Source: Candidatus Bathyarchaeota archaeon
GTDB lineage: Archaea > Thermoproteota > Bathyarchaeia > 40CM-2-53-6
Assembly: GCA_963733055.1 (NCBI GenBank)
Contig: CAVTBR010000001.1
Location: forward strand, 704,001 to 768,000
Direction: 5' to 3'
Length of the DNA: 64,000 nt
Part shown: piece by piece, positions 43,491 to 62,393 of the stretch
Layout of the letters: each line of letters opens with the position of its first letter
How positions within the stretch are numbered: position 1 is the first letter of the stretch
Made by a program: the position numbers and the translations under genes
The notes under the pieces: generated by a model
The model's database searches: none
The model's input: only the letters and a program-made list of their open reading frames with translations
What the model was told of the DNA's origin: nothing

Positions 43491-43967
43491 TTGGCAGTAG
43501 ATATTCGGATTAAACGTGCTCCTGCGTACAAAGTAGCATCTATGCTCCGAGTCGGATCATATGAGAGCAATATGCTCCGGTCTGAATTCAGCCAACTTGT
43601 AAAGTGGGCGGAGAAGAGAAAGCTCCGAACCGGGAAATGGATGTTGTTTTTCATAGATGAGCCAGGTGGACGTAGGCCGATGAACAAGCTCCGATCCGAA
43701 GCCTGCCTCCAAATCAAGGGAACTGCACAGAGTGAAGGAAAAATTAAAGTCAAGACACTTTCCGCACAAAAGGTTGCTAGTGTCACATTCAACCCTGACA
43801 AGGTCTCACCCCGCCTGGTCTACTCGGGAATCTACGGATGGTTGAGGTATGCAGGGTTCAAAGACTCTGTCCAAGGCCGAGAAATATACAATGGAAACCC
43901 ATGGCGCAACCCTCGCGCTTGGGCCAACGCGGAAGTTCAAGTTCCCGTGAAAAAGAAGAAGACGTAG
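43491..43967 (+). CDS. GyrI-like small-molecule-binding domain protein
   Basis: VASMLRVGSY, LRSEACLQI, IYGWLR...REIYNGNPW...EVQVPV. Confidence 0.8.
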   Translation: MAVDIRIKRAPAYKVASMLRVGSYESNMLRSEFSQLVKWAEKRKLRTGKWMLFFIDEPGGRRPMNKLRSEACLQIKGTAQSEGKIKVKTLSAQKVASVTFNPDKVSPRLVYSGIYGWLRYAGFKDSVQGREIYNGNPWRNPRAWANAEVQVPVKKKKT

Positions 43968-44028
43968 TTAGTCACAAAAGAAGATGCCGTAACAGGCGGC
44001 AGAATTAATGAACTGCGGTGCCGTCGCG

Positions 44029-44196
44029 CTAGTTGCTAGCTATCTGCAATCGGCGTTCTTTCATCTCTACTGATGCAAGTGCATGAGTAACACAATTTAA
44101 TTCGCATGCTTCTGCTTCCTCGAATTCCTTGTAAACAAACCCGCAAAAACCACACTTGAACTGCATGTCCCATGCCCTATGCTGGTCGCCTAACAT
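44029..44196 (-). CDS. 55-aa archaeal zinc-finger microprotein
   Basis: MLGDQHRAWDMQFKCGFCGFVYKEFEEAEACELNC... (CxxC-x12-C-x3-C); not in ORF track. Confidence 0.65.
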   Translation of the reverse strand: MLGDQHRAWDMQFKCGFCGFVYKEFEEAEACELNCVTHALASVEMKERRLQIASN

Positions 44197-44403
44197 TCAC
44201 ACTCGACTCGAAAACGACTTCCGCGCTGAAACGTGTTAAATTTAGGTGGAACTTGTGGAAGGATCCCCAACTAGTTCTACTCAGTAGAAAAAGTATAACG
44301 CCCCAGCACCTCGTGTCCGGCTGGCATACTTGACGGTTAGTAGGACCTCACTGGAAGTTCATTACGCTAATACCGGCGGTTTGAATCAAACCTCACTCTA
44401 CCA

Positions 44404-44459
44404 GGTAGAAATTAGGAACATTATACATTTCTTACTTTTTCTCCAGCCGCTGTTAAATA
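44404..44459 (+). promoter_or_regulatory. Conserved promoter/operator block of micropeptide copy 1
   Basis: GGTAGAAAT-n3-GAACATT...TTACTTTTTCTCCAGCCGCTGTTAAATA; matches 57724-57779 with the same 49-nt spacing to the TATA-like box. Confidence 0.7.
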
Positions 44460-44508
44460 TTGTGACCCAACATAGACGCTTCCAGAAGATTTGTGGAGGT
44501 GTTTGAGG

Positions 44509-44589
44509 TTGGCTAAGAAACGCAAGGTTAAGATGAGTTTAGGTAAGGAGCACGACAAGAACGTTAGACAAGAGGAAATGGTAGCATAA
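44509..44589 (+). CDS. 26-aa micropeptide, copy 1 (MAKKRKVKMSLGKEHDKNVRQEEMVA)
   Basis: TTG start 7 nt after GGAGGTG (44495-44501); same peptide as 57845..57925; followed by a GGCGG/CCGCC hairpin and T-rich tract. Confidence 0.8.
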   Translation: MAKKRKVKMSLGKEHDKNVRQEEMVA

Positions 44590-44691
44590 GCTGCCACGGG
44601 AGGCGGTTGATTCCGCCCCTGCTCTCGTTTCACTCATTAATTCTTATTTTGTTAGAATCTTTTCGGAGTTTCCAGCGGCGCTAGAGTGGGT

Positions 44692-45585
44692 TTATGGTTT
44701 GTAGTTCTCCAGCCACCACTTAGCGATGTCGATTCTGCGGGCGATCCAAACCTTCGGTTTCGCTTTCACGTATCTGAGGAACCTGTCTACCGCAACGGTC
44801 CTGCCTGGTCTGCCGGAAATTCTAACGTGCAAACCAACGTTCATCATCGTAGGGTTTTCTCTACCCTCATCGTACGTCTGGTCGAAGGAGTCCTTCAGAT
44901 ACTGATAGAACTCCTCGGCGTTGCTGAACCGGTTCGAAAAGTAGTGAAAATCATTCACGTCAGGTGTGTAGGGAATGAGGAGAAAATTCTTGCCGCTGAC
45001 GTTCACATAGTATGGGATGTCGTCGTTGTAGACATCGGAATCGTATAGGAACCCTCCCTCTTCGGCGAGAAGCTCAATGGTGTTTTCGCTGGGCTCTCTG
45101 CAATACCAGCCTACAGGTCTCTGGCCCGTTATCTTCTGAATCGACGCTACAGCATTCCGGATAGCCTCGCGCTCTTCTTCCCTGGACAGGGTGAAGTGTT
45201 CTACCCACCTGTAACCGTGGCTGCAGATCTCATGCCCTTCGCCGACTATCTCTTTCGCCGCCTCCCGGTTCGTTTCCAATGTCTTTGCGGTTGCGAAGAA
45301 CGTAGTCTTTGCATTGTGCTTGGCAAAGGTTCTGAGGATTCGCCATATCGCGACGCGTGTTTCATATTCGAAGATAGATTCAATTGTTAAGTCGCGCTTT
45401 GGCGGCGTCCCATACGACGGAAATTCACCGAAAGTTTCAGGGCCTTGATCTCCAAAACCCAAGGCGCGTTCGCCGCCGGCCTCGTAGTTGATAGCGAACG
45501 TTAGTGCAAGTTTGGCGCCCTTGGGCCAACGCACCTTAGGACGAGATTTCCCATATCCGACGAAGTCACGTGGTATTGGGCTCAT
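44692..45585 (-). CDS. puuE: PuuE-type allantoinase / polysaccharide deacetylase family
   Basis: PRDFVGYG...WP.GAKLA..FAINYE.GGE, ESIFEY, HEICSHGYRW, GLHVRISGRPGR. Confidence 0.82.
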   Translation of the reverse strand: MSPIPRDFVGYGKSRPKVRWPKGAKLALTFAINYEAGGERALGFGDQGPETFGEFPSYGTPPKRDLTIESIFEYETRVAIWRILRTFAKHNAKTTFFATAKTLETNREAAKEIVGEGHEICSHGYRWVEHFTLSREEEREAIRNAVASIQKITGQRPVGWYCREPSENTIELLAEEGGFLYDSDVYNDDIPYYVNVSGKNFLLIPYTPDVNDFHYFSNRFSNAEEFYQYLKDSFDQTYDEGRENPTMMNVGLHVRISGRPGRTVAVDRFLRYVKAKPKVWIARRIDIAKWWLENYKP

Positions 45586-45647
45586 AAGTTAGCTCCTAGT
45601 CTGAGTGAGCAGGAAGTTCTTATCAGGCTTTTCAGTTCCGCTTGCTT

Positions 45648-46226
45648 TCACGATTTGCTCTGGGTTTCTCTATGCAGAAGCAGGTTGATTATTCTGAAGG
45701 TTAATCCCCATATCACGTGACCCTGATAGACATACGAGTCAGCTGAAAGAGTACCTTCGTCTGCCTTAACCTCTCGACTCTCCACCTCAAGTCTGCCAAG
45801 ATCACTCAACGGTACCCAGAAGGTTTCAGCGACTTCCTCGCTTACACGAATACTTACGGTTGACTTGAGTTGAAAGACGAAAGGCAACACCCGCATCCGC
45901 CTTGATCTCGTAGTGACGATTGAAAGACTACCAAGTAATTCGTGGCCGCTGAGTTGTAATCCAATCTCCTCCCGTGTCTCTCGGACCGCTGTTTCAACCA
46001 AGCCCTTGTCCGCAGACGATTTGCGTCCACCAGGGAACGCGATCTGCCCCGACCAAGGATCTCCTCTTCGCTCGGTCCTCTTGATGAAAAGTACTGAGCC
46101 GCCACGATCATTTGGATTGATGATTATCGCAACGGCGGCTACAGGAGGCCCTTCCCCTGCCTCAGGAACAGAATTCTGAGGCAATAGCCTGTTCTTGAGA
46201 GATTCTAGGTTGAATTGGCCAGTCAC
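45648..46226 (-). CDS. Nudix CoA pyrophosphatase
   Basis: DPWSGQIAFPGG, TAVRETREEIG, IWGLT. Confidence 0.9.
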   Translation of the reverse strand: MTGQFNLESLKNRLLPQNSVPEAGEGPPVAAVAIIINPNDRGGSVLFIKRTERRGDPWSGQIAFPGGRKSSADKGLVETAVRETREEIGLQLSGHELLGSLSIVTTRSRRMRVLPFVFQLKSTVSIRVSEEVAETFWVPLSDLGRLEVESREVKADEGTLSADSYVYQGHVIWGLTFRIINLLLHRETQSKS

Positions 46227-46320
46227 AGTGAAGCACTAGCCTAGTGGCAATGAGAATAATCCTGATGATATTTGAACGATCTTGCTTTCAGTGCCTGGTT
46301 TTCGGGTTTTAAGCTGTACG

Positions 46321-47037
46321 TCACCCGATTTTGATTCCAACGTAGAGTCCTCTTCCGATGAGACCCTTGTCATAGTGGGTTACCTTCAAACCGGCTAGTC
46401 GAAACGCGTTCATGTACTCGGAATGCGTGAAGAGTCCAAACTCCTCACGTTCCCTGAGATATTGCGTGTCCTGTTGCGTCGCTATCAAGTACTGAAAGTC
46501 CAATGTCGAGATGCGGCCTCGAACCATTGATTTGTCAATCCGTGCAATCTTTAGTTTGGGTTCATTCACGAATACAGCGTGTATTTTTCCTCTAATGACA
46601 TTGCGTGGGGTTATCCAGGGCTCAACTATCAAGACACCTCCCGGCTTAAGGTGAAGGCTCATGTTTCTCACCGCTCGCCGGAGTTTCCGAAGCGTCGTCA
46701 TGTAGCCGACCGCACTGAATAGGCAGGTAACAATATCGAACTCTTTACGGAGGGCGAATGTGAGCATGTTGCCTCTATGGAAATGAATTTCCGGATTCCT
46801 TTTCTTGGCTATCGCAAGTAGCCCAGGATCAAGATCTAGGCCCTCGACGGAATAAGATGACTTTAGATATGAAATGTGTCGGCCCGTCCCGCATGCGACA
46901 TCGAGTAGTGCGTTGCCTTGTGATTTTTTGTGTCGTCGAATTAATTTGTTCAGCCGCTTGGATTCTTCTTTGTAATTCTTCCCTGCGGCATCGTAGATGA
47001 TGTCATAGTAGGGTGCTGACCGGTCAAACAAAGTCAA
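46321..47037 (-). CDS. Class I SAM-dependent methyltransferase
   Basis: LLDVACGTG, FDIVTCLFS, LKPGGVLIVEPW. Confidence 0.92.
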   Translation of the reverse strand: MTLFDRSAPYYDIIYDAAGKNYKEESKRLNKLIRRHKKSQGNALLDVACGTGRHISYLKSSYSVEGLDLDPGLLAIAKKRNPEIHFHRGNMLTFALRKEFDIVTCLFSAVGYMTTLRKLRRAVRNMSLHLKPGGVLIVEPWITPRNVIRGKIHAVFVNEPKLKIARIDKSMVRGRISTLDFQYLIATQQDTQYLREREEFGLFTHSEYMNAFRLAGLKVTHYDKGLIGRGLYVGIKIG

Positions 47038-47144
47038 ACCTAACCACTCGTGCAGAAGGCTTTGCTAATTGGCAATTGGGTTGCGGTAGTCAAGCTTTAT
47101 CTTTTGGTCGAAGGCCAACCTCAATTCAACTAAGCTGATATCCG

Positions 47145-48365
47145 ATGGCGAACACAGCTGATGCGATGCGTTGGATCGACCAGTCTCATGATGAGCTTAC
47201 GAGATTCATGGTGGACATGCTACAGATCAAGGCCGTAAACCCGGATGGAGGAGGTAAGGGCGAATACGCTCGTGCCCTCTTCGTGAAGAAATGGCTTGAA
47301 GACCTTGGGTTGAAGGTAACAAGGTACGATATTCCCGACAGTCGAGTGCCCGAAGGAGTTCGGGTAAACCTGACGACGACCATCGAAGGTGAAGATAAAG
47401 GGCGGACTCTCTGGTTGGCCGCGCACTTGGACACAGTCCCTGAGGGCTCACGTGAACTCTGGACAACAGACCCCTATGTCCCGGTCGTGAAAGACGGAAA
47501 GATTTTCGGAAGGGGCTCAGAAGACAATGGGCAAGCGGTTGGTTCAACCCTATTCACGTTGAAAGCAATCAAGACGTTAGGGATTAAACCCAAAATGACC
47601 CTCGGCCTTGCTCTTGTATCTGACGAAGAGTCGGGGAGCAAGTACGGGGTGATTCCGCTTCTTGAAAGGGGCGTATTCAAGCCAACCGACATAGCGCTGG
47701 TACCCGACACTGGAAAGCCGGACGGATCAGAGATTGAAATTGCGGAAAAGAGCATTCTATGGCTGAAGATAACGACGACAGGCAAGCAAGTTCATGGGAG
47801 TACGCCTGAAAAAGGATTGAACGCCCGCCGCGTAGCTATGAAGTTCGCCATTCAACTCGACGAGATGCTACATTCTAAGTACTCCGCCAAAGATTCCTTA
47901 TTTGAACCAGAATCATCAACCTTCGAACCCACGAAATGCGATGCGAACGTTGACAACGTAAATACCGTTCCTGGCGTTGACGTTCAATATTTTGACTGTC
48001 GAGTTCTCCCGCTATCCGTTAGTTGACGTTCTCAAAGAGGTTGAATCTGTTCGGATGAAGCTCGAAAAGGAAACCGGAGCTACTATCGAGGTTAACCCCA
48101 TCCAACATGAGCAGAACACGAACCCCACCCCTATGGACAGCCCGATCGTAGTAAGATTGAAGGCTGCGTTGAAACAGCTGCGTGGGCTGGACGCGAAGGC
48201 CATCGGAATCGGTGGTGGGACTGTTGGCTTATACTTTAGACGCAAGGGAATCCAAACTGCTGTCTGGTCGACCCTGGACGATAAGGCCCATCAACCCAAT
48301 GAATACTGCAAAATCGAAAACATGGTCAACGACGGAAAGTGTTCCTTCACGTCGCCACAGCGTAA
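47145..48365 (+). CDS. M20/DapE-family metallopeptidase; apparent frameshifts near 48010 and 48334
   Basis: AHLDTVP, GRGSEDNG, DEESGS, GKQVHGS, NVNTVPG, DCRVLP, then GIGGGT...AHQPNEY...(DA)KVFLHVATA* in shifted frames. Confidence 0.85.
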
Positions 48366-48370
48366 TACAA

Positions 48371-49228
48371 TACGGTGCGTTTCAGACGAGGCCAGCTCTG
48401 TTCAACTCCACAATTGCGACACCATCCGACCTGCACTCGGTAGCTAGGCTCTGCCGCCGAGCCGTTGGCCCATCAGACTATGTGCTCAGAATACTTCCCA
48501 GAGCTGCTGCGCGTGGCCGACTCTTCTTGGCTTGGTATGGAAACGAACTTGTGGGCATGACGCTCCTCGATAAGTGCCTCGACGGCAGCGGATGGCTAAG
48601 CATGGCACGCACCGACCCGGGTTGGCGCCGGCAAGGAGTAGCCATCTTCCTTCAACGTCGAATTCTCGAGTACGCGAGGGGCGAAGGAATCAACTCATTG
48701 AGACTATGGACGTTGTCTACGAACCAGGCGTCGATAAGGGCTTGCGAAAAAGGGGGTTTCAAGCAGGTCTCCGAAGCTGCTCACATCTCCCGCCGTCTCA
48801 AAATCTCGAAGAATAGGAAAACCAAACCGAATTCCGTGTCTACCGCCCGCTTACGCTCGTTACTGAGCTCGAACTACATCGCCAAGACGAACGGTTACAT
48901 TGCACGTGATTGGTATTTCATGAAAAGCTCGGAAAGACTACTTAGACAATTGGAAAGACGAGGTGAACTTTATGATTCTGAAGACTATGCTTTCCTAGTA
49001 ACGAGGCCAGAAATAAGATTCAAAGAACCTCAAAGTAGTCTAACAATTCTCACTGGCCCTGTGTCAAAGTCGATGGAGAGTGCGCAGGAAATAGCGGCGG
49101 CACTTGGAGCGAAGATTCTAAGTTCCTACATACCGTATGAACCCTACCAATTCTCAGTCGCAAAGAAACAGCATTTCAGAAGGAGCCCGTGGGGCAACCA
49201 TTGTTTAGTGTTCGAGAAGAAAGTATGA
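48371..49228 (+). CDS. GNAT-family acetyltransferase (true start unresolved, downstream of the M20 stop)
   Basis: GWLSMARTDPGWRRQGVA and NQASIRACEKGGF motifs. Confidence 0.8.
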   Translation, partial: YGAFQTRPALFNSTIATPSDLHSVARLCRRAVGPSDYVLRILPRAAARGRLFLAWYGNELVGMTLLDKCLDGSGWLSMARTDPGWRRQGVAIFLQRRILEYARGEGINSLRLWTLSTNQASIRACEKGGFKQVSEAAHISRRLKISKNRKTKPNSVSTARLRSLLSSNYIAKTNGYIARDWYFMKSSERLLRQLERRGELYDSEDYAFLVTRPEIRFKEPQSSLTILTGPVSKSMESAQEIAAALGAKILSSYIPYEPYQFSVAKKQHFRRSPWGNHCLVFEKKV

Positions 49229-49294
49229 GCGCTATTCCAGATGAAACAGAATACCTAGAATTTAAGAACATGACGCGACCGACGTAGGAGCAAG

Positions 49295-49585
49295 GTGCCG
49301 CATGTGATTACAGCATTCGTCATGATGAATGCAGAAAGAGACCGCATCGCCGCGATACCCAATGAGTTACTCACAATCACCTCCGTAACCGAGGTTTACT
49401 CAATCGCTGGCGACTTCGACCTCGTCGCGATAGTCCGCGTGAAAGAAGCTGAAGACCTAGCGGGGGTTGTCACAGAAAGGTTTGCCAAGGTAAAGGGCAT
49501 AACGCGAACGATGACGCTGATCGCATTCAAGTCGTACAGTAACTACGATCTCGAGAATATGTTTCAAATAGGGTTCAAAGGTTAG
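49295..49585 (+). CDS. Stand-alone Lrp/AsnC ligand-binding (RAM) domain protein
   Basis: ITAFVMM, EVYSIAGDFDLVAIVRV, GITRTMTLIAF. Confidence 0.9.
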   Translation: MPHVITAFVMMNAERDRIAAIPNELLTITSVTEVYSIAGDFDLVAIVRVKEAEDLAGVVTERFAKVKGITRTMTLIAFKSYSNYDLENMFQIGFKG

Positions 49586-50550
49586 CCATACTTCGACAGA
49601 ATCTTGGACAGTAGTTTAAGAGAGATATTTCCCCCACTCACAACCACCACGATCTCAGAACCTGGTCTGAAATCGGTTTTCTGCACGAGAGCGGCGACGG
49701 CCGCTGCTGCCGACGGTTCAATGACCAGATGACACTCTCGCATGACAGTGAAAACGGCTTTTTCGATCTCCTCTTCACGCACCAGAAGAATTTCATCCAC
49801 GTAACGCTTTGCGCATTCGAACGTGAGCACCCCTGGTTCGCGCGTTGCTAAACCATCCGCGATGGAGGTTGTGTCTGTTAGCCGAGTAATCTTCCCGTCC
49901 TTGATTGAACGGTACATCGACGAAGCCTTCTCAGGCTCCACCCCGAAGACCTTCGTTTCCGGCGTCAAGCTCTTCAATGCTGTAGCGATTCCGGAAATGA
50001 GTCCGCCCCCACCAATAGGGACAATAACCGCATTTACGGTCGGCAAGTCCTGATGGATTTCCAGTCCAATGGTTCCCTGTCCCGCAATTATCTCCGGATC
50101 GTCGAAGGGCGGAATAAGAACGCCTCCCGTCCTTTTCTGAATCTCAAATGCCTTCTCGTAGCGCTCATCGTGAAACAGTCCATGCTTGATAACTGTCCCC
50201 CCGTACTCTTCAATCGCCTTTACCTTCTCTTCTACCGCAGTAGTTGGCACCACTATCGTTGCCTTGGTTCCCGTCAATTTTGCGAGATATGAAACTGCAA
50301 GCCCATGATTCCCGGATGAGGCCGCGACGAGCCCTCGTTTCCGTTCCTCTTCGGAAAGTTTCAGGATCTTATTTGCCGCGCCTCGGACTTTGAAGACCCG
50401 TGTTGGTTGATACGACTCGAGTTTCAGGTATACCTTTGCGCCGGTGAGATTGCTAAGACCCGGAGAATGGTACAAAGGGGTCTTGTATGCTACGCCCGCG
50501 ATTCTACGGCTGGCGTCTTTAATCGCGTCTAGATTGACTAAGTCCCTCAT
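49582..50550 (-). CDS. ilvA: Threonine/serine dehydratase (short PLP-dependent form)
   Basis: KLESYQPTRVFKVRGA, ASSGNHG, PIGGGGL, SIADGL, SGGN. Confidence 0.88.
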   Translation of the reverse strand: MRDLVNLDAIKDASRRIAGVAYKTPLYHSPGLSNLTGAKVYLKLESYQPTRVFKVRGAANKILKLSEEERKRGLVAASSGNHGLAVSYLAKLTGTKATIVVPTTAVEEKVKAIEEYGGTVIKHGLFHDERYEKAFEIQKRTGGVLIPPFDDPEIIAGQGTIGLEIHQDLPTVNAVIVPIGGGGLISGIATALKSLTPETKVFGVEPEKASSMYRSIKDGKITRLTDTTSIADGLATREPGVLTFECAKRYVDEILLVREEEIEKAVFTVMRECHLVIEPSAAAAVAALVQKTDFRPGSEIVVVVSGGNISLKLLSKILSKYG

Positions 50551-50602
50551 GAACCCACATTCTCAATTAGATAGCTGAGCATCACACTTACCTCGTCTTC
50601 GG

Positions 50603-50992
50603 TCAAGCGGAGACCTGGCGCGGACCCGAGAGTTTGCCGGAATAGCGTTGCACTTCGGGTTGCATAAGTAAGTACAAGATTATCAAGTCCATGACCAATG
50701 AAACGAACTCGCCCGCACGCGGCCTCACAAACAGTATGAATATGAGAACGGCTATGCCGAGAATCGCGAAGACCATGGAAGATACCCAAGCCCACCTTCT
50801 CTGACTCCACAGTCCATACGCCAAAATGAAGCAGATCATCGTGAAGACTAGTGACCCCAGATCGTTGATGATGCCAAATCTTGGAAATGCCCGCGTCTGT
50901 GGAACGAGTAGCGGTAGAAGCGCAAGTGCACCTAGCAACACGTCTAGGGCCACAAGTAGTTTAACTGTAAACGGACGGACAGACGTTGGCAA
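50603..50992 (-). CDS. Small four-helix membrane protein
   Basis: RPF.V, AYGLW...WAW, ILYLLMQPEV..Y. Confidence 0.75.
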   Translation of the reverse strand: MPTSVRPFTVKLLVALDVLLGALALLPLLVPQTRAFPRFGIINDLGSLVFTMICFILAYGLWSQRRWAWVSSMVFAILGIAVLIFILFVRPRAGEFVSLVMDLIILYLLMQPEVQRYSGKLSGPRQVSA

Positions 50993-51003
50993 TCGCTGTA
51001 GTC

Positions 51004-51138
51004 CTACTTACTTGTGCTCGGGTTTTTCTCAGTCAAACGCTGTCGTATCTTCTCAGCTAAGTTTTTCCGCTCGGTATCATCCCTCGCGGAAATCCATTGC
51101 AGTTTCAAATAGAAAATGTCTTGGTCTTTTGAGGGCAT
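51004..51138 (-). CDS. Putative 44-aa helical microprotein
   Basis: MPSKDQDIFYLKLQWISARDDTERKNLAEKIRQRLTEKNPSTSK; upstream AAAGTTATATTG and a G-rich RBS; fills the intergenic gap. Confidence 0.5.
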   Translation of the reverse strand: MPSKDQDIFYLKLQWISARDDTERKNLAEKIRQRLTEKNPSTSK

Positions 51139-51278
51139 CTTTTTCCCCCGAATTGGATGGTTTGCTTCGACTCCGCAAGAGTCTGGAAATGCGCAATATA
51201 ACTTTAGACTGCAAAACCCGTTTCCTAGCGAAGTACACTCCAGCTAGGATTTTGAGTTTCTGCGTGAGTCGAAAGGGG

Positions 51279-51716
51279 TCAGATGGTTTTGCGCATTGCC
51301 AAAGCCGTGGCACAGCACGCTCCGAACTCTTGCGACTCTTTAACCACCTCATCGATGCTATTTCGGTCCGTTATAGTGAATCCGAGTTTCTCGAAATATT
51401 TGGATGCGTTCTCCGTCAGCAGGTAAACGTCGCGGACTCCATTTTGCCTGGCGTTTGACAGGGCGGCATTGACCAATGCTTTGCCGTATCCCATTCCTCT
51501 AGAGCTCTCGTCAACGGCAACCGAACGAAGTAATGCACACTGGCCGTACAGTTCAACCCCTGCGATTCCGTACCAGACGCCCTTCGCATCTGTTGCGATA
51601 AGAAAGTTCGAGTAGCAACTTTCGACTCCAATCGTTGGTAAACCGTTACCGTTTAGGAAGCTTACAATGTGTTGAAGATCAGTTGCTTCGGCCGCCCTAA
51701 TTTGGAATCCCGGCAA
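51279..51716 (-). CDS. arsN2: ArsN2-like N-acetyltransferase
   Basis: GLPT.G, ALLRSVAV...RGMGYG, YLLTENA..YF, SQEF...C..A..M. Confidence 0.8.
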   Translation of the reverse strand: MPGFQIRAAEATDLQHIVSFLNGNGLPTIGVESCYSNFLIATDAKGVWYGIAGVELYGQCALLRSVAVDESSRGMGYGKALVNAALSNARQNGVRDVYLLTENASKYFEKLGFTITDRNSIDEVVKESQEFGACCATALAMRKTI

Positions 51717-51734
51717 GTCTGTTCCCCGTTCTCT

Positions 51735-52895
51735 TCAGGTAACCGTGATCGAGGTTTCGATGTTCCGCTTTTCTAGTTCGGAAAGCATTCCGTCGGGGGG
51801 AACGCAGGCCTCGGGAGCAAACACCCCTTTCTTTGTTATTGCTCCCGTCATTATCATCTGAGCAACAATAGACGCACCTATACCGGTCAAAAGCGCGGTC
51901 GCATTCTTCACTCCAAATACTGGATCCGGTTTCCCTACAACGTCACAGGTAACAATCCGACTTTTTCCTTCTTTCATGCCCTCAACCATCGTTCTTAGGG
52001 CAACACACCTTTCTGGTTCCTCACTGCTAGAACGCGATTGAAGATAGGCCACGGCGAAGTCGCGAGGTGAAACCTTCGCTCCCTTCACTTCGATGGGAAC
52101 AGGATCGTCTAAACCCGCGTCAATCATGGGCCTAATGGCTTTGAACAGTTTCGGAGACACACCAAGCTTGAAGTCCACATCTGTAACTTGCTTGAAATTC
52201 AGCGGCAGCGTTGCGATTTCGGAATGGATGGAGTAGTGGCAAATGTTCCTACCAACCGGTTCGTTAAACTCCACCACCTCATCTCCAGATAAGGGAGCGA
52301 CCTCCTGAAATTTCGAATCGACGTACATTACCGGCGTCTTAGAATACTCGTCGAATATTGTCGAAACGGCAAACGGAAAGCCCAACCTGTCCCCTACTGA
52401 TCCACCTCGCGCTTCAACCCCTCCAACGCGGATTCTAATCTTCCTAACGCTATCCAATCTCTTTGCGCATAGGGCGACCATTACGTTAGTGATTCCTGGG
52501 CTTTCTCCTCCACCTAGAACGGCGGTGATGCCTGCGTTCTCAGCATTCTGATGTAGCTCCATTTGTTTTCGCGTCATGTGAAAAAGGCCCCCAAGGTCAT
52601 TATAGTGAACCTTTGCCCGAATCGCGGCTTTCATCACGTCGAGATTGTGTTCGTACCACACGGCGTTGATCAAGATCTGGGATTCGCTAAGTTTCTCAGC
52701 CAGTTTGGCTTGATCGGTCGCGTCAACTTTCACCGTTCTAATTTTGTTAGATGCAATAGCGCTCCTGGCATGCTCAGCTCTGGTAATGTCAACATCGCCA
52801 ATGATTACTTCGTCGACTACGCCTGATCTACAGAGGTCGCGGACGGCGACCTCTCCCATTCGTCCTCCCCCAAGTACGAATACGGAATTCGACAT
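51735..52895 (-). CDS. Saccharopine dehydrogenase / lysine 6-dehydrogenase-family oxidoreductase
   Basis: LGGGRMG, HYNDLGG, GESPGITNV, HSEIATLP, GVFAPE. Confidence 0.85.
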   Translation of the reverse strand: MSNSVFVLGGGRMGEVAVRDLCRSGVVDEVIIGDVDITRAEHARSAIASNKIRTVKVDATDQAKLAEKLSESQILINAVWYEHNLDVMKAAIRAKVHYNDLGGLFHMTRKQMELHQNAENAGITAVLGGGESPGITNVMVALCAKRLDSVRKIRIRVGGVEARGGSVGDRLGFPFAVSTIFDEYSKTPVMYVDSKFQEVAPLSGDEVVEFNEPVGRNICHYSIHSEIATLPLNFKQVTDVDFKLGVSPKLFKAIRPMIDAGLDDPVPIEVKGAKVSPRDFAVAYLQSRSSSEEPERCVALRTMVEGMKEGKSRIVTCDVVGKPDPVFGVKNATALLTGIGASIVAQMIMTGAITKKGVFAPEACVPPDGMLSELEKRNIETSITVT

Positions 52896-52946
52896 ACGAG
52901 CCGCAGCTCTCCTACGGTTGGATTGGGCGGCGGTGGTTAGGTCAGA

Positions 52947-54605
52947 TCATTCGGGCGGTATCTGTTGAAAGGCTTTCTCGAAAGGTAAGCCTTCACGTTT
53001 TCTGAAGACCTTCGCTACGTAGAACCACGCTAGGCAAATTACGAATAGGGCTATCACTCCCCCTAAGAATGGGAAGTAGAGATTTGCAGCTAAAGTGCCC
53101 GCTCCGAAGTAGAACACATAGTTGTATGAATAGTATCCAATCGTAATGAGTGAGTAAGCTAGAGCGATTATCCCCAGCCAAGAGAGGATCGGGATCTTGG
53201 CGATCTTTTTCTTGATCGGACAGGCTGTGTCGTAAAGTTCCTTACGCGTGTAGGGGAACACTATCGCGGAGATTGAGGCCAATACAAACGTAACGCCCAC
53301 TGCTGCTAGCCCAGCGTATGAGTAGAGTAGAAAAGCGTAGTTTGAAGTTGAGGGCCCTACGACGCCACTCAGGAACGCGAGGAAAACTTCGCCTCCAACA
53401 GCTGCGACTAGGATTGTGTTGGTTGGAGTATGGAATCGTTCGTTAATGTTTGTGAATAGGCTAGGGGCGAGTCGATCGAAGGAGTAGGAAAACACGATTC
53501 TAGACATCAAGAGCATACATTGGGGCGTAACCAGGATAAATCCAGCAATTACTCCAATTCCGATAAACCAGACGAGAAGCGGGTTATTTGCTAGCAACGA
53601 AGCGAAAAGAGTGAGGTTAGGTATGACCGGTAGGGGGTTCGTAACGTACCCGAAAGCGTAGTACCCCGCACCGGTTAGAAATTCTGGCCCCAAATTGTTG
53701 TAGGCTAATCCGAGGACGGCCGCGGTAGTGATGAATATAATTGCGAAACTACCAAACAACGCTGTCTTCGCGCTAGACCTAGCGCTCTTGAGTTCACCAG
53801 CTAAGTAATTTGAAACATATACCCAGAACAGAACAGTGAACCAGAGAGGCACCAAGGTGAAGGTCGACATAATATCCGTTGGAACCGAACCTCCCCAGTA
53901 CGACGTGCCGGTGGCGGTAAAGTTCGCATAGGCACCTTCACTCATTGACACACCTTGTGAAGTAGCGTAGTTGTTGAATACTGTAGCAAAGGAGGTGGGA
54001 TTGGTACTGGCCAATAAGGCAACGATTATCACGATAGCTGCTATCGCTATTATCATGCAGACGTTCTGAATTCGAAAGTATAACTTTGTACTGAACATAA
54101 CGATCAAAGTGAAAATGATGATGGCAACGGTGCCTACCAGGAAGGTGGTCAAAGGTGTGAAGGTTCCCGCGGCATTAGTAGCCCACTGCTGTCCAGTCAA
54201 AGACCCATACACGCTTAGAGTCTGGGCAAGTCCTTGGCTTGAGAAAACGTCCGCTGCATCACCAATCCAGAACCAGAGGAAGAAAGTGTAACCCGCAAAG
54301 TTGGCTGCAAGACCAACTGCCGGGTGGATGATTCGGCTAATGAAAACGTAATCTCCCCCAGATCTAGGCATGCTCACTTGGAAAATGTAATACACGCCGA
54401 GCAATGCGAGGATTCCAGGTGCAGTGAGCACTAGGCTAGCGAGCACATTACCGCCGTAAAGTGGGGCGTATTCCAGCGCGTAGATTATCGACCAAGCTCC
54501 CCCGAAAGAGACTATGTTGAGAAAGAGCATATCCCACGCGGACATGGATCGAACGAGTCCGGTTGCTTCCCTAACAAAAACGGCAGGCTTTGACATCAGA
54601 TTCAC
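52947..54605 (-). CDS. APC-family amino-acid/polyamine permease
   Basis: FVREATGLVR, MPRSGGDYVFISR, YLAGELK, SRIVFSYSFDR, F.QIPPE. Confidence 0.92.
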   Translation of the reverse strand: MNLMSKPAVFVREATGLVRSMSAWDMLFLNIVSFGGAWSIIYALEYAPLYGGNVLASLVLTAPGILALLGVYYIFQVSMPRSGGDYVFISRIIHPAVGLAANFAGYTFFLWFWIGDAADVFSSQGLAQTLSVYGSLTGQQWATNAAGTFTPLTTFLVGTVAIIIFTLIVMFSTKLYFRIQNVCMIIAIAAIVIIVALLASTNPTSFATVFNNYATSQGVSMSEGAYANFTATGTSYWGGSVPTDIMSTFTLVPLWFTVLFWVYVSNYLAGELKSARSSAKTALFGSFAIIFITTAAVLGLAYNNLGPEFLTGAGYYAFGYVTNPLPVIPNLTLFASLLANNPLLVWFIGIGVIAGFILVTPQCMLLMSRIVFSYSFDRLAPSLFTNINERFHTPTNTILVAAVGGEVFLAFLSGVVGPSTSNYAFLLYSYAGLAAVGVTFVLASISAIVFPYTRKELYDTACPIKKKIAKIPILSWLGIIALAYSLITIGYYSYNYVFYFGAGTLAANLYFPFLGGVIALFVICLAWFYVAKVFRKREGLPFEKAFQQIPPE

Positions 54606-54688
54606 GCTTTTGACGATTGCAAATATCGGTTTTCATTGGTTAAAAGACTTAGCAATGTATATTCCAAAAGTAGAGTGACCGTGTTTGT

Positions 54689-55618
54689 TCAACAGTTGAA
54701 AGTCCTAGTATCTGTCGACGCGATTCCGGCAAGTTTGGACCCGTCGGGGGCCCAGGACACACGGCTGAAGAAGAATTCGTTGCTGCTGTAAAGCGAAGTG
54801 AACCTTTCCCCGTCCCATAAGATGAGTTGACCGTTCCCCGTTCCTACTTGCGTTGTTGCTGTGGCGATGGCTGCGGCCTTACCCTTCGGATCCCATCTTA
54901 CGGCAACCGGGTAGACCCTGCTGTTTTCGAATTTGATGGGTGACAATGTGTTTTCTTGGAATTTCGCGATTAGTCCATTGTGCCAAACGACATCATACCC
55001 AACCACTAAAGCGTAAGCATCATCTGGCTTCGAATCGATACCGATTAGGTCTGAGCGCCCTTCGTTGGCGCCTCTCAGAACGTTTGATTTTGTTTCGTAA
55101 GTGAAGAGGTTGGGGGAAGGGATGAATTCTTCAGCGAAGCAGTTGGAGGCTACGAGTGCTTGATCAGAGGAGTGTCGCCAAGAGATATCACGGAGATTTG
55201 CTCTGCCATTGTCAATCGTTTCTATGTGGTTGTCGTAGTATTTCATTAATGCCCCGTTGTTTCCAGCGATCACTGCTAGATCGCCTTTCGGATTCCAGGC
55301 TACGGTACGAAGATTTTCGTTAGTTAAGGTGCTTAACTTTCTGAAATTTCCATCCTCATCAAGCAGTAGGGCCGTACCCGCATTTCCCACTATCAAGGCT
55401 GAGTCGTTGGTTGGGTTTACTGATATTGCGCGGAGGTTGTGCTTGGTGTTTGGATTGAGTCTGTGTATTTCGCCCTCCCGGATTCTTATGACCTTTCCCC
55501 CGTTGCCTACGAGTAATAAGTCAGGACCGTGTCTGTCCAAAGCCAATGCGCGAAAATTTGTCCGGAATAGCCTTGTCTCTATCCTGTTGCCATCGTAAAG
55601 GACTAAAATTGACGACAA
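54689..55618 (-). CDS. WD40-like beta-propeller protein
   Basis: Repeated NLR.(I/V).W.P....ALIVGN.G units. Confidence 0.8.
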   Translation of the reverse strand: MSSILVLYDGNRIETRLFRTNFRALALDRHGPDLLLVGNGGKVIRIREGEIHRLNPNTKHNLRAISVNPTNDSALIVGNAGTALLLDEDGNFRKLSTLTNENLRTVAWNPKGDLAVIAGNNGALMKYYDNHIETIDNGRANLRDISWRHSSDQALVASNCFAEEFIPSPNLFTYETKSNVLRGANEGRSDLIGIDSKPDDAYALVVGYDVVWHNGLIAKFQENTLSPIKFENSRVYPVAVRWDPKGKAAAIATATTQVGTGNGQLILWDGERFTSLYSSNEFFFSRVSWAPDGSKLAGIASTDTRTFNC

Positions 55619-55720
55619 TCAGCGAACTTCCTTGATTCTGTCTCGTCCGTGACCCCGTTTATGGTTGACTCAAAAAGTAGATTTGAGTGTTCTATTAACA
55701 TTGGAAACTTCGGGTAGTCG

Positions 55721-56062
55721 TTGATGAGAGACGGTGGAAAGCGGACTTCAAGGGTAGGAGTGTACTCTGAGCGTCCAATCAGAAATGAGAAGGATCTGTT
55801 AGACTTCATCGAAGCCTTAGATGAGGACGAAGGAGTGCGTGCAGACGGGAATCTGGAGAATCATGTAAACGGAGGTTTCGTCTTTGTGGGCATCTTCAGG
55901 GGCAGTTACTGTGTGAATATCTGCGATAAATTGTGGAATCCCAAGTTACGGAAGCATGTTGCTGGAGGAAAGGATGAATGGTATTATTTCGATACCGGGA
56001 AGGAAGCATTTCGCTTCGTCCTCAAGGAAGCGAGGCATCCGCTTCGTGCTTGGCTCTATTAG
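55721..56062 (+). CDS. Hypothetical protein
   Basis: 113-aa ORF filling the gap between convergent genes. Confidence 0.65.
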   Translation: MMRDGGKRTSRVGVYSERPIRNEKDLLDFIEALDEDEGVRADGNLENHVNGGFVFVGIFRGSYCVNICDKLWNPKLRKHVAGGKDEWYYFDTGKEAFRFVLKEARHPLRAWLY

Positions 56063-56069
56063 GTTGGAT

Positions 56070-57285
56070 CTAGGTGAGTAGGCCAAGCACCCCTGCCAGA
56101 CTTCGAAATGTTTTTTCGAACTCTGTTTTCGTTCCTTGATTGAGAGTCGGACCGACTCTTGCGAGCTCGTCAGCGAATTCTGTTAGGACGTTCAGTGCTC
56201 CGGGTGTATCGAAGTCATTGTTCATATGGCGTGTGAATGCTGACTTGTATCTGACCAGTTTTGCGGGCGGGTTTCTCGCCTTTAGATCCGCGGCGGGTTT
56301 TGCGTCTAAGAATGAGTTGAAATTTTTCAAGAGACGATCGAGCTTACGTTTGGTCTTGATCAATCCGCTGTTTGAAAATACCATAGGTTGCCTGTAATGT
56401 ACCGATTCAAAGTAGAATCTGATTTCCGGTGCGGTGTGATCTCGGAGGGCGTCCCGAATACGGATTACGTTACCCAATGATTTACTCATCTTACGACCCG
56501 CTACGTTCAACAAACCCGTGTGGAGCCAGTAACGCACAAACGGGATCTTCCCGGTCAGGGCTTCTGCCTGCGCGATCTCAGCTTCATGGTGTGGAAAAAT
56601 CAGTTCTGAGGCACCACCATGGATGTCATAGCTATTTCCGAATTGCCCCATCGATACGGCTGTGTCCTCAATGTGCCATCCCGGCCTGCCTCGTCCCCAA
56701 GGCGAATCCCAAGCGAGTCCTTTCTCATACTTTCTCCACAATGAGAAATCCTCGGGCTTTCGCTTCGAAGAACATAGTTCAAGCCTTCGCAAGCCCAGTT
56801 CTTCGTGGGTTAGGCCGGAGAGTTGGCCAAATGTGGGGAACTTGTCGACCTCGAAGTAGACGCCGGTCTCTGTTTCGTATGCTATTCCCCTGTCGATTAG
56901 GCCGGTTACTTGCGCGATCATTTTCGGAATAGCTTCGGAAGCTCTTTCGAACCGATCAACCTGTGTTACTCCAAGAGACTCCATGTCTTCCAAAAATGCG
57001 CGTTCGTATTCTCGGGCGAGGTCGAGAGGGTCTCGTTTTAGCTGCTCGGCTCGTTGAACGACTCGCTCAGCTACATCTGTGATATTCATGAGGTATTGGA
57101 TTCTGTAACCCAAGAACTTCAGGTAACGAGTAATCGTATCAAAGGCAAGATATGTTCTAGCGTGCCCCAAGTGAGGGAAGTCGTACACAGTGGGCCCACA
57201 CACGAACATCTTGACTTGCGCAGTCTGGGGATACGGTGAATAGTTCCTTCCTGCGGGTAAGCGAATTGTAAACTTTGAGTTGCAT
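56070..57285 (-). CDS. cysS: Cysteinyl-tRNA synthetase-like protein, short atypical form; apparent frameshift near 57220
   Basis: MQLKVYNSLTRRKE.. from ATG 57285, then VKMFVCGPTVYD, HLGH, GRPGWHIED, FPHHE, KMSKS and the DFDTP (DALR) domain. Confidence 0.85.
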
Positions 57286-57475
57286 CGTCTGCTCCCATCT
57301 CCAGCATAGGTAGTGCCGTTAATCAGTTCCGTAATCTCCCAGACCGCTGTCTTAGATGCAGTATAAACTTCTCAGCGGCAATACCGTCATGAACAAGCTA
57401 TAGTCGACGCGGTCCTCCTATGTCACCGAAAATGGGCGAATTTACCGGAGAGGCGTGGATTTGGAACGTTTACGG

Positions 57476-57712
57476 CTACGTTGACTGTTTTTTCGCTTTG
57501 CTCTGGACAATGTAGTAGTTTTCGTCCACGTCAATCTCCAAGTCTGGCACGAAGGCTAAGATGAATTCGATTAATTCATCCATGCTTCGCTTGCGTCTCT
57601 CTTTCAACTGGAGAAAACCCTGTAGACTCACAAGCCGCTCGTACATATCGGAGCTGATCTTGATGCTTCTGCTTAACCGCCTCTTCTTGCCGGGTTCAAA
57701 TGTTCTCGACAC
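57476..57712 (-). CDS. Small ribbon-helix-helix-like DNA-binding protein
   Basis: RSIKISSDMYERL...SMDELIEFIL (beta-alpha-alpha). GTG 57712 after CGGAG is preferred over TTG 57766. Confidence 0.7.
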   Translation of the reverse strand: MSRTFEPGKKRRLSRSIKISSDMYERLVSLQGFLQLKERRKRSMDELIEFILAFVPDLEIDVDENYYIVQSKAKKQST

Positions 57713-57723
57713 TAAGTATCTCC

Positions 57724-57779
57724 GGTAGAAATGTAGAACATTCGGGCTTTTTACCTTTTTCTCCAAGCCGCGTTATATA
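57724..57779 (+). promoter_or_regulatory. Conserved promoter/operator block of micropeptide copy 2
   Basis: GGTAGAAAT-n3-GAACATT...TTACCTTTTTCTCCAAGCCGCGTTATATA; contains the palindrome AATGT-AGA-ACATT. Confidence 0.7.
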
Positions 57780-57844
57780 CAAGATTCATGCCCGCTCCCA
57801 GTAACCTGGTAATGCAACACCAGAAAACAGGGAGGTGAGTTGAG

Positions 57845-57925
57845 ATGGCGAAGAAACGTAAGGTTAAGATGAGTTTAGGTAAGGAGCACGACAAGAACGT
57901 TAGACAAGAGGAAATGGTAGCATAA
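57845..57925 (+). CDS. 26-aa micropeptide, copy 2 (MAKKRKVKMSLGKEHDKNVRQEEMVA)
   Basis: ATG 7 nt after GGAGGTG (57831-57837); 78 of 81 nt identical to 44509..44589, all differences silent. Confidence 0.8.
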   Translation: MAKKRKVKMSLGKEHDKNVRQEEMVA

Positions 57926-57997
57926 GCCCACTAGTTGGGCTCCGTTTCCGGATCAAGCCCCCGTTCTAACTTTTTCTGTCTATCTTTTCGTTTTTTC
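57925..57997 (+). terminator. Hairpin plus T-tracts after micropeptide copy 2
   Basis: AGCCCA-CTAGT-TGGGCT followed by TTTTTCT...TTTTCGTTTTTT. Confidence 0.55.
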
Positions 57998-58090
57998 GAT
58001 GCGAACTGCTTTTCTTCTGTCGGTTTGAGTACAGATAGAGTCTTAAGCAAACTACCGCATAAAATGGCGAACACGCGTAGTGTTCATCTT

Positions 58091-58861
58091 ATGTTGGAAT
58101 TAATCCCGGGCCATATATCGCAAGCGATACTACTCATTGTCGTGTTGATTGCGATTTACGAAGTATCAAGGGTCGCGTCGAAAAGGAAGCTGAAAACGCG
58201 GGGCATCCCTGGACTGGAGAGGATTGATGAATGGATTAAGGAAGCAGCAAAACTCAAGCGAAGCGTATTCTTCACGCCCGGAACGGGCAGTGTCACCTCA
58301 CCGGACACGCTCGCGGCACTCGCCCTTCTCCAATATGTTGCAAAACACTGTGTTGAACATGACGCCCGGATCTTAGTTGCAAACTCCGATCCCCAAGTGC
58401 AACAGGTTACGGAGGATATCGTGAAAAGTGCATACGCTAAAGCGGGCAGAGAAAAAGAATTCAGCACGGACATGGTGCGGTACGTATCCACTCGGCAGTT
58501 CGCATATGCAGCAGGTGTTATGGGAATTCTACGCCGCGAAAAACCCGCCGTCAACTTTTTCGTTGGCGACTTTCAGGCGGAAGCGTTGCAACTCGCCGAG
58601 ACTGGAAGAAGCGAAGCGCTTTACCAGTTCGGGGGCACAACAAACACCGACCAACTACCATTCTTCATGACAACTTGCGATCAAACCCTAATCGGAGAGG
58701 AGCTATACACAGCACAAGGATACCTTTCCTCGGATCCTGAAGCCGTTTCCCGCCTCGTCGGACCCGACGCAGGAAAGATCCTCGCGATTCTCCTCATTCT
58801 AGCTGGCGCGCTTCTCATAACTTTCGGTAACTCGATCCTGATCGCCTTGATGGAGTTCTGA
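58091..58861 (+). CDS. DUF6754-like membrane-anchored protein
   Basis: TM helix + RGIPGLERIDE, QFAYAAGV, AEALQLAETG, QLPFF..TCD..LIGEELY.A..YLS + C-terminal TM. ATG 58091 preferred. Confidence 0.8.
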   Translation: MLELIPGHISQAILLIVVLIAIYEVSRVASKRKLKTRGIPGLERIDEWIKEAAKLKRSVFFTPGTGSVTSPDTLAALALLQYVAKHCVEHDARILVANSDPQVQQVTEDIVKSAYAKAGREKEFSTDMVRYVSTRQFAYAAGVMGILRREKPAVNFFVGDFQAEALQLAETGRSEALYQFGGTTNTDQLPFFMTTCDQTLIGEELYTAQGYLSSDPEAVSRLVGPDAGKILAILLILAGALLITFGNSILIALMEF

Positions 58862-58868
58862 GGCACCA

Positions 58869-59561
58869 ATGAGCTCAAGCAAGAAGAAGATGACTCGAGG
58901 AGAATTTGGCCTTCAGCTGATTATCTTCGGCCTGGGCTTCTTCTATGCAATAGTCTACTATGTTGCACTGCCAGGAATAGTCGATTTGCAGGCTGTTTCT
59001 GACCAGTTATTGGCCTACTTGACCGCGATGCTCACGGCCACGTTCGCGATCGGAATCATCAACCTCACTCGCGTCCATGTGAACAACATCAAAAGAAAGC
59101 GGGCGACTTGGAGGTACAGCGTGATTCTCCTCGTATCCCTTTACGCAATGGCGATCTTCAGTATGATCGCCTCACCTTACGCGCTGGACCCACAAGCGGC
59201 TGTAATACCAACAAATGTCATTGCCTTCTCAACCCCCATCTGGGAATTCCTGTACTACAAAATTCTTGTGAACATAAACTCAAGCATCTTTTCTCTTCTC
59301 GCCTTCTTCATCGCTTCAGCAGCTTACCGAGCTTTCAAAGCACGATCCTTAGAGTCGACGATTCTGCTAGCCGCAGGCTTACTAGTCGTGCTGGGACAGG
59401 CGCCAATAGCAGATTTGGCGTGGCCAGGATTCAGCGTGATTCGCGACTGGATATTGGCTTTTCCCAACACGGCGGGGCAAAGAGGCATCCTCATCGGCGC
59501 TGCACTAGGAATTCTTGCGTTCAGTGTTCGCAGACTAATCCGGTACCCTTGGGGAGACTAA
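58869..59561 (+). CDS. Uncharacterised multi-pass membrane protein
   Basis: About six TM helices; FSLLAFFIASAAYRAFKARS, PNTAGQRGILIGAALG. Confidence 0.85.
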   Translation: MSSSKKKMTRGEFGLQLIIFGLGFFYAIVYYVALPGIVDLQAVSDQLLAYLTAMLTATFAIGIINLTRVHVNNIKRKRATWRYSVILLVSLYAMAIFSMIASPYALDPQAAVIPTNVIAFSTPIWEFLYYKILVNINSSIFSLLAFFIASAAYRAFKARSLESTILLAAGLLVVLGQAPIADLAWPGFSVIRDWILAFPNTAGQRGILIGAALGILAFSVRRLIRYPWGD

Positions 59562-59565
59562 CAGG

Positions 59566-60414: not shown

Positions 60415-60417
60415 GAC

Positions 60418-62250: not shown

Positions 62251-62393
62251 CGCGAACACTATCCAATATGGAAACACAATGGTATCCGTCGTGACCTTCC
62301 ATTTTCAAGTTCGCTAGACTGCCCGCTACCCAATAAAAGATACTATAGGCAGGTTCCACATTATGCCCCATTGCATCCGCAAAGGCCCTGCGC

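Follow-up and report, generated by a model that had tools for sequence, protein, structure and literature searches.

Why should a single 26-residue peptide be encoded twice, in nearly the same nucleotides, at two separate places on one contig? The question is raised by a 64,000-nucleotide stretch of a Candidatus Bathyarchaeota genome (contig CAVTBR010000001.1, positions 704,001–768,000; hereafter the window). The Bathyarchaeia are uncultured archaea that abound in peat, soil and sediment. Two short open reading frames (ORFs) of the window, copy A at 44509–44589 and copy B at 57845–57925, specify the same product. The explanation that we favour, with moderate confidence, is that both belong to a multicopy, genus-specific family of stand-alone micropeptide genes, each with its own promoter block, which undergo gene conversion and would be co-regulated for the bulk production of a peptide made of two conserved motifs.

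Two copies of one gene in the window

Copy A starts with TTG and copy B with ATG, and both encode the 26-residue product (M)AKKRKVKMSLGKEHDKNVRQEEMVA followed by a stop codon, the full translation common to the two being MAKKRKVKMSLGKEHDKNVRQEEMVA, then stop. The copies differ only at ORF nucleotides 1, 6 and 15, and a perfect match of 68 nt ends two bases past the stop codon. A first-pass annotation, made from the sequence alone, had described the identical peptide with three differences in 81 nt, the abrupt end of the match, and a GGAGGTG exactly 7 nt upstream of both starts together with a TATA-like box; translation and alignment reproduced each of these. The TATA-like boxes lie ~ 50–70 nt upstream of the starts. 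The parts of the two loci are as follows.

Copy A
44396–44410 (+): inverted repeat CTCTAC-CAG-GTAGAA, bounding the promoter block on the left; the right arm of the repeat begins 105 nt before the start codon, and the block is conserved across paralogs and species
44453–44459 (+): TATA-like box TTAAATA
44495–44501 (+): Shine-Dalgarno (SD) sequence GGAGGTG, 7 nt before the start, complementary to the 16S 3′ end
44509–44589 (+): ORF of 26 codons plus stop, with a TTG start that is also present in the positional orthologues of the related genomes G013 and G019
44524–44591 (+): 68 nt that match copy B exactly, interpreted as a gene-conversion tract with its 5′ edge between ORF nucleotides 16 and 19
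44597–44655 (+): GC-rich hairpin (44597–44621), then a T-rich tract; presumed transcript end, fold z-score −1.29

Copy B
57476–57712 (−): conserved gene for a 78-residue protein, a candidate DNA-binding regulator; it is transcribed away from copy B, and the half of the block that holds the inverted repeat overlaps its SD and 5′ leader
57718–57730 (+): imperfect inverted repeat ATCTCC-G-GTAGAA, whose left arm also serves the 78-residue gene on the minus strand as its SD (GGAG)
57773–57779 (+): TATA-like box TTATATA
57831–57837 (+): SD sequence GGAGGTG, 7 nt before the start
57845–57925 (+): ORF of 26 codons plus stop, with an ATG start; the widest conserved synteny of any family locus in the genus
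57860–57927 (+): 68-nt run identical to copy A (gene-conversion tract)
57925–57999 (+): hairpin (57925–57941), then several T-tracts, before a gene with a DUF6754 domain; fold z-score −1.00

Two of the first-pass statements need to be revised. The neighbourhoods had been called unrelated and the flanks diverged, but an upstream promoter block of ~ 65 nt is common to the two copies, so the flanks are only partly unrelated. The hairpins and T-tracts described downstream are present in both copies; neither hairpin, however, folds better than its shuffles, and a bacterial-type promoter and terminator scan of the window, in which sites were no commoner than in shuffled sequence, did not call the hairpins of the family units. 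The other statement to be revised, a gene present twice, was an understatement: the genome holds a family of about 13 copies. The convergent gene downstream of copy A ends at 44692.

A family of stand-alone units

The genome of the window (G000) comprises 2.88 Mb in three contigs (C1–C3), with 50.5% G+C. Its 16S gene scored 1452 bits under an archaeal model and 1072 bits under a bacterial one. BLAST and tblastn recovered ten intact copies, each of exactly 26 codons, and one 3′ fragment; with further searches added, the copy-number search that had been suggested in the first-pass annotation gave 12 clear members, one probable member (C1:1432154) and one fragment. The identical peptide is encoded by three copies, A, B and one outside the window at C1:566921, and seven more are near-identical. 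Divergent members keep the termini around other middles, namely LAKKRKIKMKMNDTAQIVPAPTESVA at C3:631382 (−) and MKKKQKVKMIRAQTEPIQPSTQSEQVA at C1:702673 (+), the latter only 1.3 kb before the window. Among 67 SD-led short ORFs with a basic N-terminus in G000, ten end in V-A, and all ten are family members.

Each copy is a stand-alone unit of roughly 220 nt with a fixed order of parts: an inverted repeat, a T-rich stretch ending in ...TCTCCAAGCC, a TATA-like TTAAATA or TTATATA, ~ 35–55 unconserved nt, GGAGGTG, a spacer of 7–8 nt, the start codon, the ORF, a hairpin and T-tracts. The inverted repeat has the form TTCYAC-N3-GTRGAA and was located in 33 units; in 26 of them the right arm begins 102–107 nt ahead of the start codon. 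GGAGGTG stands 7–8 nt before an ATG, TTG or GTG in 10/13 members of G000, and also in relatives. An nhmmer profile of the promoter block found 12 sites in G000 at E ≤ 3.6e-6, all of them before family ORFs and before no other gene. We also scanned metagenomes, constraining only the SD and the first nine codons and leaving the middle and C-terminus free, which gave at least 120 stretches; among the matches listed, the block was present in 107 of the 111 units with enough upstream sequence and TTAWAK at −75 to −40 in 108 of the 111. The repeat arms vary at Y and R independently (TTCCAC is paired with GTAGAA in five units, for example), and this lack of the covariation of an RNA stem fits a protein-binding site better.

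When the copies were aligned, the edges of the units proved free of terminal repeats and target duplications. The neighbouring genes differ between loci, and an opposite-strand gene ends within 450 nt downstream in many of 35 units. Surface-protein paralogs adjoin 4/11 loci of G000, apparently as segmental duplicates; most of the 35 units have no such neighbour. As a separate observation, clusters of paralogous secreted proteins (L038 5297–7277, L039 3390–4773, L041 2101–6029 and L042 3341–4821, on C3, C2 and C1 of G000) have an N-terminal signal peptide and a common C-terminal tail (PIPEYP.G, a hydrophobic stretch, RRR) that resembles an archaeosortase-type sorting signal; one cluster adjoins a phage-integrase-family gene (L038 3235–4119).

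Gene conversion among paralogs

We defined positional orthologues by the 1.3-kb flanks (identity 70–92%). Locus B and C1:566921 have such orthologues in G013, G016 and G019, and locus A in G013 and G019. The three G000 ORFs with identical peptides are ~ 2–3 nt apart from one another, as against 5–12 nt from their own orthologues, and the likeness is distributed along the locus as follows.

Upstream 140 nt: 82–92/140 identical among G000 paralogs, 108–132/140 against positional orthologues
ORF nucleotides 1–18: 15–16/18 among G000 paralogs, 15–18/18 against positional orthologues
ORF nucleotides 19–81: 63/63 among G000 paralogs, 54–59/63 against positional orthologues (4–9 differences)

In the downstream 100 nt, the G000 loci are again closer to their orthologues than to their paralogs. 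Locus-specific states persist in ORF nucleotides 1–18, where locus A has TTG, GCT and CGC in common with its orthologues. Moreover, a derived S10/K13 pair occurs in five G000 copies and K13 alone in a sixth, whereas G013, G016 and G019 have K10/T13, so the pair was copied between loci after the split from G019. The same pattern was seen in G016, two members of which (L111 and L112) differ by 1 nt. The near-identity of A and B is thus shown to result from recent short-tract gene conversion among paralogs that already occupied these loci before the species split, which also explains why the 68-nt identity ends just past the stop codon. Gene conversion had been one of the first-pass suggestions, and it is the one that the comparison bears out: paralogs are alike at 63/63 positions where orthologues differ at 4–9, and the flanks follow orthology.

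Two further sequences have the look of recombination. The locus L106 of G013 (about 1998–2110) is without the promoter block, and immediately after its stop codon part of an ORF 3′ end is repeated, resembling a recombination scar, and the G000 fragment at C1:1426325–1426357 is a second, similar footprint.

An assembly artefact, with one of the loci a chimeric duplicate of its counterpart, we regard as virtually negligible in probability. Positional orthologues with the same flanking genes occur in independently assembled genomes, for locus A in two and for locus B in at least nine others, and both copies keep locus-specific 5′ differences that are found also in their orthologues. Read contigs from four DNA runs over window positions 43500–58800 were short and of low depth, with none spanning either locus; contig ends from two DNA runs carried the ORF with other flanks, in related organisms.

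Concerted evolution by gene conversion is established for tuf genes and rRNA operons. As in those cases, paralogs are more alike than orthologues inside the tract while the flanks follow orthology. In contrast to them, the tract here is only ~ 63–68 nt, inside an 81-nt gene, and one derived haplotype (S10/K13) has spread to at least five loci.

Coding evidence and the translation signal

The first-pass annotation had supposed a conserved microprotein built for strong translation. The comparative data are in agreement. Among 35 ORFs from four genomes, 34 are exactly 81 nt long and the remaining one, still in frame, has 90 nt; pN/pS averages 0.24 and dN/dS is 0.16, the latter being approximate because the paralogs used exchange sequence. 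Variable sites number 14, 15 and 22 of 25 at the three codon positions.

The metagenome scan gave at least 118 complete ORFs. Among the matches listed, there were 67 distinct peptides, of which 65 are 23–30 residues long and 60 end in VA or VS. In the 66 listed peptides of 20–31 residues, Glu stands at position −4 in 63, Val at −2 in 61 and Ala at −1 in 58, and position 11 is Leu or Ile in 61. The conserved parts are therefore the N-terminus MAKKRKVKM, L/I at position 11 and a C-terminal E-x-V-A directly before the stop, whereas the middle is variable, hydrophilic and Cys-free, a linker free in both sequence and length. Synonymous choice in the first nine codons is free (for example, GTC 49 and GTT 62, or CGC 83 and CGT 32, among the listed matches). 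At one syntenic locus followed through ten species, the N-terminus and the E-x-V-A end (or E-x-Q-A, E-x-E-A) are kept around middles that cannot be aligned, in peptides of 24–28 residues.

The 16S 3′ end of G000, ...GGATCACCTCCT, is complementary to GGAGGTG. An in-frame start behind the full heptamer was found for only 6 of 2004 open frames of at least 200 codons, and behind GGAGG for 148 of 2004 by a crude count; on that same count, SD use across G000 appears to be low. Given the complementarity and the rarity of the full heptamer, the family carries an unusually strong translation signal for this genome. Taken together, the kept frame, the length of 23–30 residues, the dN/dS of ~ 0.16 and the perfect SD at a fixed distance indicate that the family consists of translated protein genes.

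The opposite reading, a non-coding RNA or cis element with an incidental open frame, draws on the very little synonymous change in codons 14–18 and 21–23, which could hide an additional constraint. We consider it highly improbable. There was no Rfam match in the window, nor any tRNA, and fold z-scores against shuffles were −1.66 and −0.03. Moreover, species whose middle nucleotides bear no relation to one another still preserve the start codon, the distance to the SD, the reading frame and a stop immediately behind V-A, which, with the low dN/dS, is the behaviour of a coding sequence. The RNA-level constraint proposed in the first pass finds no support in the same evidence, the ORF middle being wholly replaced in other species with the frame preserved.

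Distribution, gain and loss

We searched a genus set of 23 genomes, including G000, and a sister set of 36 genomes from four sister genera. A first profile matched 9/22 of the other genus genomes and 0/18 from other genera and families of the order. A back-translated N-terminal pattern with up to two mismatches matched 14/22, most with 2–8 copies; in the sister genera it gave one two-mismatch match in each of 2/36 genomes, with V-K-M not kept. As judged from these searches, the family is confined to one genus of Bathyarchaeia, with none convincing in the four sister genera. Copy number per genome varies from 2 to 13.

Scanning 185,579 species, each represented by a single genome, we obtained 49 stretches, 35 of which are SD-led short ORFs in 11 records titled Bathyarchaeia, Bathyarchaeota or ‘archaeon’. 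Of these ORFs, 31 are complete (24–28 residues), two are cut by contig ends, and one each encodes 42 and 48 residues. The other 14 stretches were rejected as chance matches, all of them in bacterial records and with neither an SD nor a short frame, and so were three viral-contig matches, located inside longer frames with no SD. The 48-residue protein (L087 1842–1988, +, in another Bathyarchaeia record) begins MSAKKRKVKM, then differs and has no V-A end; it is the only relative in a collection of 15 billion proteins, where it carries no name.

Loss is visible at the syntenic locus of G022, where the 78-residue gene and half of the block are kept and the peptide gene is gone. The locus B copy of G014 (L128) has lost its SD, reads through to 47 residues and appears to be decaying, with another copy of that genome intact. 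In a tree of the cysteinyl-tRNA synthetase (CysRS) paralog that neighbours locus B, built from 19 rows and 3 outgroup rows (G004, G009, G012 and G017 were left out, having no usable orthologue), six genomes that lack the peptide group together (support 88/72) and G022 is nested among the genomes that have it (99/97), with the base not resolved. This single-gene tree would fit a gain at the genus root followed by two losses equally as it would a later gain. Judged from the genomes compared, loss in some lineages shows that the peptide is dispensable. A core ribosomal protein can be ruled out, since the family was not found in 8 of the 23 genus genomes and the G022 remnant shows loss.

Locus B, its 78-residue neighbour and a putative shared operator

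The order at locus B, CysRS paralog (−), 78-residue gene (−), peptide gene (+) and DUF6754 gene (+), holds in G000, G019, G013, G016, G015, G021, G018, G001, G020 and G011; it is cut by a contig end in G007 and contains a degenerate copy in G014 (47 residues, no SD). The 78-residue protein is 84–97% identical across the genus, compared with 63–94% for the CysRS paralog, and 37 of its 78 columns are invariant. Its gene is single-copy and occurs in 19/23 genus genomes. The SD and leader of this gene overlap the left arm of the inverted repeat, half of which still stands before it in peptide-less genomes, and the peptide paralogs carry copies of the inverted-repeat element without the 78-residue gene. 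The N-terminus of the protein is basic; two helices follow, and then a C-terminal hairpin that is acidic (AlphaFold2: helix 21–38, helix 44–54, hairpin 58–71; mean predicted local distance difference test score, pLDDT, 68.5), and it matched no Pfam or NCBIfam family.

The element shared by all paralogs, together with its overlap with the leader of the 78-residue gene, suggests a shared operator, possibly bound by the 78-residue protein. That all copies are co-regulated through TTCYAC-N3-GTRGAA, with the divergent gene as the candidate regulator, is a proposal to which we give somewhat less than an even chance. A ribbon-helix-helix fold is a guess from the sequence pattern, and the DNA-binding or regulatory role of the protein is a conjecture. 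A bolder reading, to which we give a rather small chance, has the peptide gene born across from the promoter of a small regulator gene and later multiplied to up to 13 co-regulated copies that gene conversion keeps in step.

Other features of the locus are recorded here. The CysRS paralog at 56070–57209 (−) is short and 46% identical to a longer CysRS-like gene at G000:C3:69971–71125; it has an orthologue in 23/23 genus genomes, most of which also show a second CysRS-like gene. Downstream of copy B, 57935–61194 (+) holds the DUF6754 membrane-protein gene and then three ORFs (230, 282 and 258 residues) without a Pfam family, beyond which lies a convergent KaiC-like ATPase gene at 61480–62277 (−).

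What the peptide may do

The peptide gave no matches in Pfam, NCBIfam, PADLOC, PHROGs or PDB sequences, and an exact look-up of eight family peptides in the collection of 15 billion proteins found none. For the N-terminal string and for Bathyarchaeia small proteins we found no related paper, in a literature whose general small-protein catalogues could hold the family. The peptide has a net charge of +4, an alternating basic/hydrophobic N-terminus (K-V-K-M-K/S-L) and an acidic tail. In the window peptide, no hydrophobic run exceeds two residues; there is no signal segment and no transmembrane helix, and there is one Ser and no Thr. Positions 11–12 read LG, LA, IG, LE and others in the listed metagenome matches, with no double-glycine leader, and Cys occurs in 0/66 of the listed peptides. 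The cationic N-terminus and acidic C-terminus presumably resemble nuclear-localisation-signal-like and EEVD-like motifs, respectively.

The number of copies and the strongest SD in the genome, along with the private promoter block, suggest that the peptide is made in bulk, and conditionally. In the mechanism that we propose, the peptide would be abundant and cytosolic; its alternating N-terminus would dock on a polyanionic target, and its acidic tail, ending in E-x-V-A, would make contact with a protein pocket. By analogy with RMF and Sra, the small basic ribosome-associated stationary-phase factors of bacteria, the target may be the ribosome or RNA, and the peptide a dispensable, conditionally made, lineage-restricted ribosome-associated factor; we hold this tentatively, as possible rather than probable. 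A DNA target seems distinctly unlikely. That the bulk bivalent peptide would tether or shut down a major machine such as the ribosome, and so represent a new archaeal dormancy or stress factor, is a bolder version, for which we see a rather small chance. Like RMF, Sra and the tiny basic ribosomal protein eL41, the family peptide is very small, basic, probably abundant, dispensable and lineage-restricted; unlike them, it has no homology to any of the three, has an acidic tail with E-x-V-A and is encoded by multicopy genes.

Several points weigh against the explanation that we favour. None of our computations connects the peptide with ribosomes, with RNA or with another partner, and the neighbouring genes give no consistent functional clue. 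The genomes in which the family was not found include ones that are 99% and 95% complete, so it is not a core component. Regarding the supposed regulator, the 78-residue gene occurs in five genomes without the peptide, and its AlphaFold2 model had no significant fold match (best Foldseek E 0.87, with weak winged-helix rows). The approximate dN/dS, the codons with little synonymous variation and the downstream hairpins that fold no better than shuffles, described above, belong on the same side.

An alternative that we find somewhat unlikely is a regulatory micropeptide that modulates one specific protein (an enzyme, a protease or AAA+ unfoldase, or a transcription factor) through two short linear motifs. 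Two short invariant motifs joined by a linker free in sequence and length are what such a role would call for, and the acidic-x-V-A carboxylate presumably compares with motifs read by peptide-binding domains. Nevertheless, ten or more copies with maximal SDs suggest more product than a scarce target needs, and no candidate partner co-varies or co-localises with the family. The genes could also encode the precursor of a modified or exported peptide, that is, a ribosomally synthesised and post-translationally modified peptide (RiPP) or a signal, with the N-terminus as leader and the middle as core, as the first-pass annotation had suggested. The conserved N-terminus and hypervariable middle over the 67 distinct listed peptides, and the many scattered copies without dedicated neighbours, do recall prochlorosin-type precursors, which are multicopy scattered small genes. 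The family differs from prochlorosins in the absence of Cys and of a co-occurring maturase of the PqqD/RRE or YcaO type, in a C-terminal E-x-V-A as conserved as the ‘leader’, and in near-identical copies, most of which encode the same peptide within a genome. PqqD/RRE occurs in 2/23 genus genomes (one with the peptide and one without, neither being G000) and YcaO in 1/23, so that neither tracks the family; no maturase, protease or ABC exporter lies beside the 11 G000 loci examined, the enzyme search having covered PqqD/RRE and YcaO only. With no hydrophobic or double-glycine signal either, a RiPP or secreted peptide appears very unlikely. The YcaO-domain gene is at G000:C2:385187–386200 (−), in G000 only among the 23 genomes.

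We give equally little credit to a small toxin-like or selfish cassette, in which a basic peptide harmful in excess would be held in check by the 78-residue protein, and the unit would owe its spread and persistence to duplication and conversion, not to any advantage for the host. Its patchiness within the genus with one demonstrable loss, the copy number of 2 to 13, a copy near an integrase, and a neighbour of antitoxin-like size with a basic N-terminus would all suit such a cassette. The units, however, lack terminal repeats and target duplications, and three loci are stable across four species; the 78-residue gene is single-copy, occurs without the peptide, and is divergent instead of co-transcribed. 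PADLOC and PHROGs returned nothing, and the hydrophobic helix of known small toxins is absent. The conditionally made bulk peptide with two motifs thus remains our preferred explanation.

Significance

Stand-alone small proteins of fewer than 50 residues are known in prokaryotes, for example in Methanosarcina mazei and Haloferax volcanii. The present genes resemble them in being monocistronic short ORFs with their own promoter and SD that gene callers miss. They bear no sequence relation to them, and differ in having 12–13 copies per genome, a private promoter block and concerted evolution. The gene is likely among the most strongly translated in these cells, yet it is absent from all protein catalogues queried, being shorter than the cut-off of gene callers. 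The family shows, in a natural setting, how concerted evolution works on a gene of 81 nt, and its product is a case of a peptide assembled from two invariant short motifs and a freely evolving linker. If the peptide is indeed an abundant binder of ribosomes or nucleic acids, it would point to a lineage-specific control of growth or dormancy in organisms of the carbon cycle.

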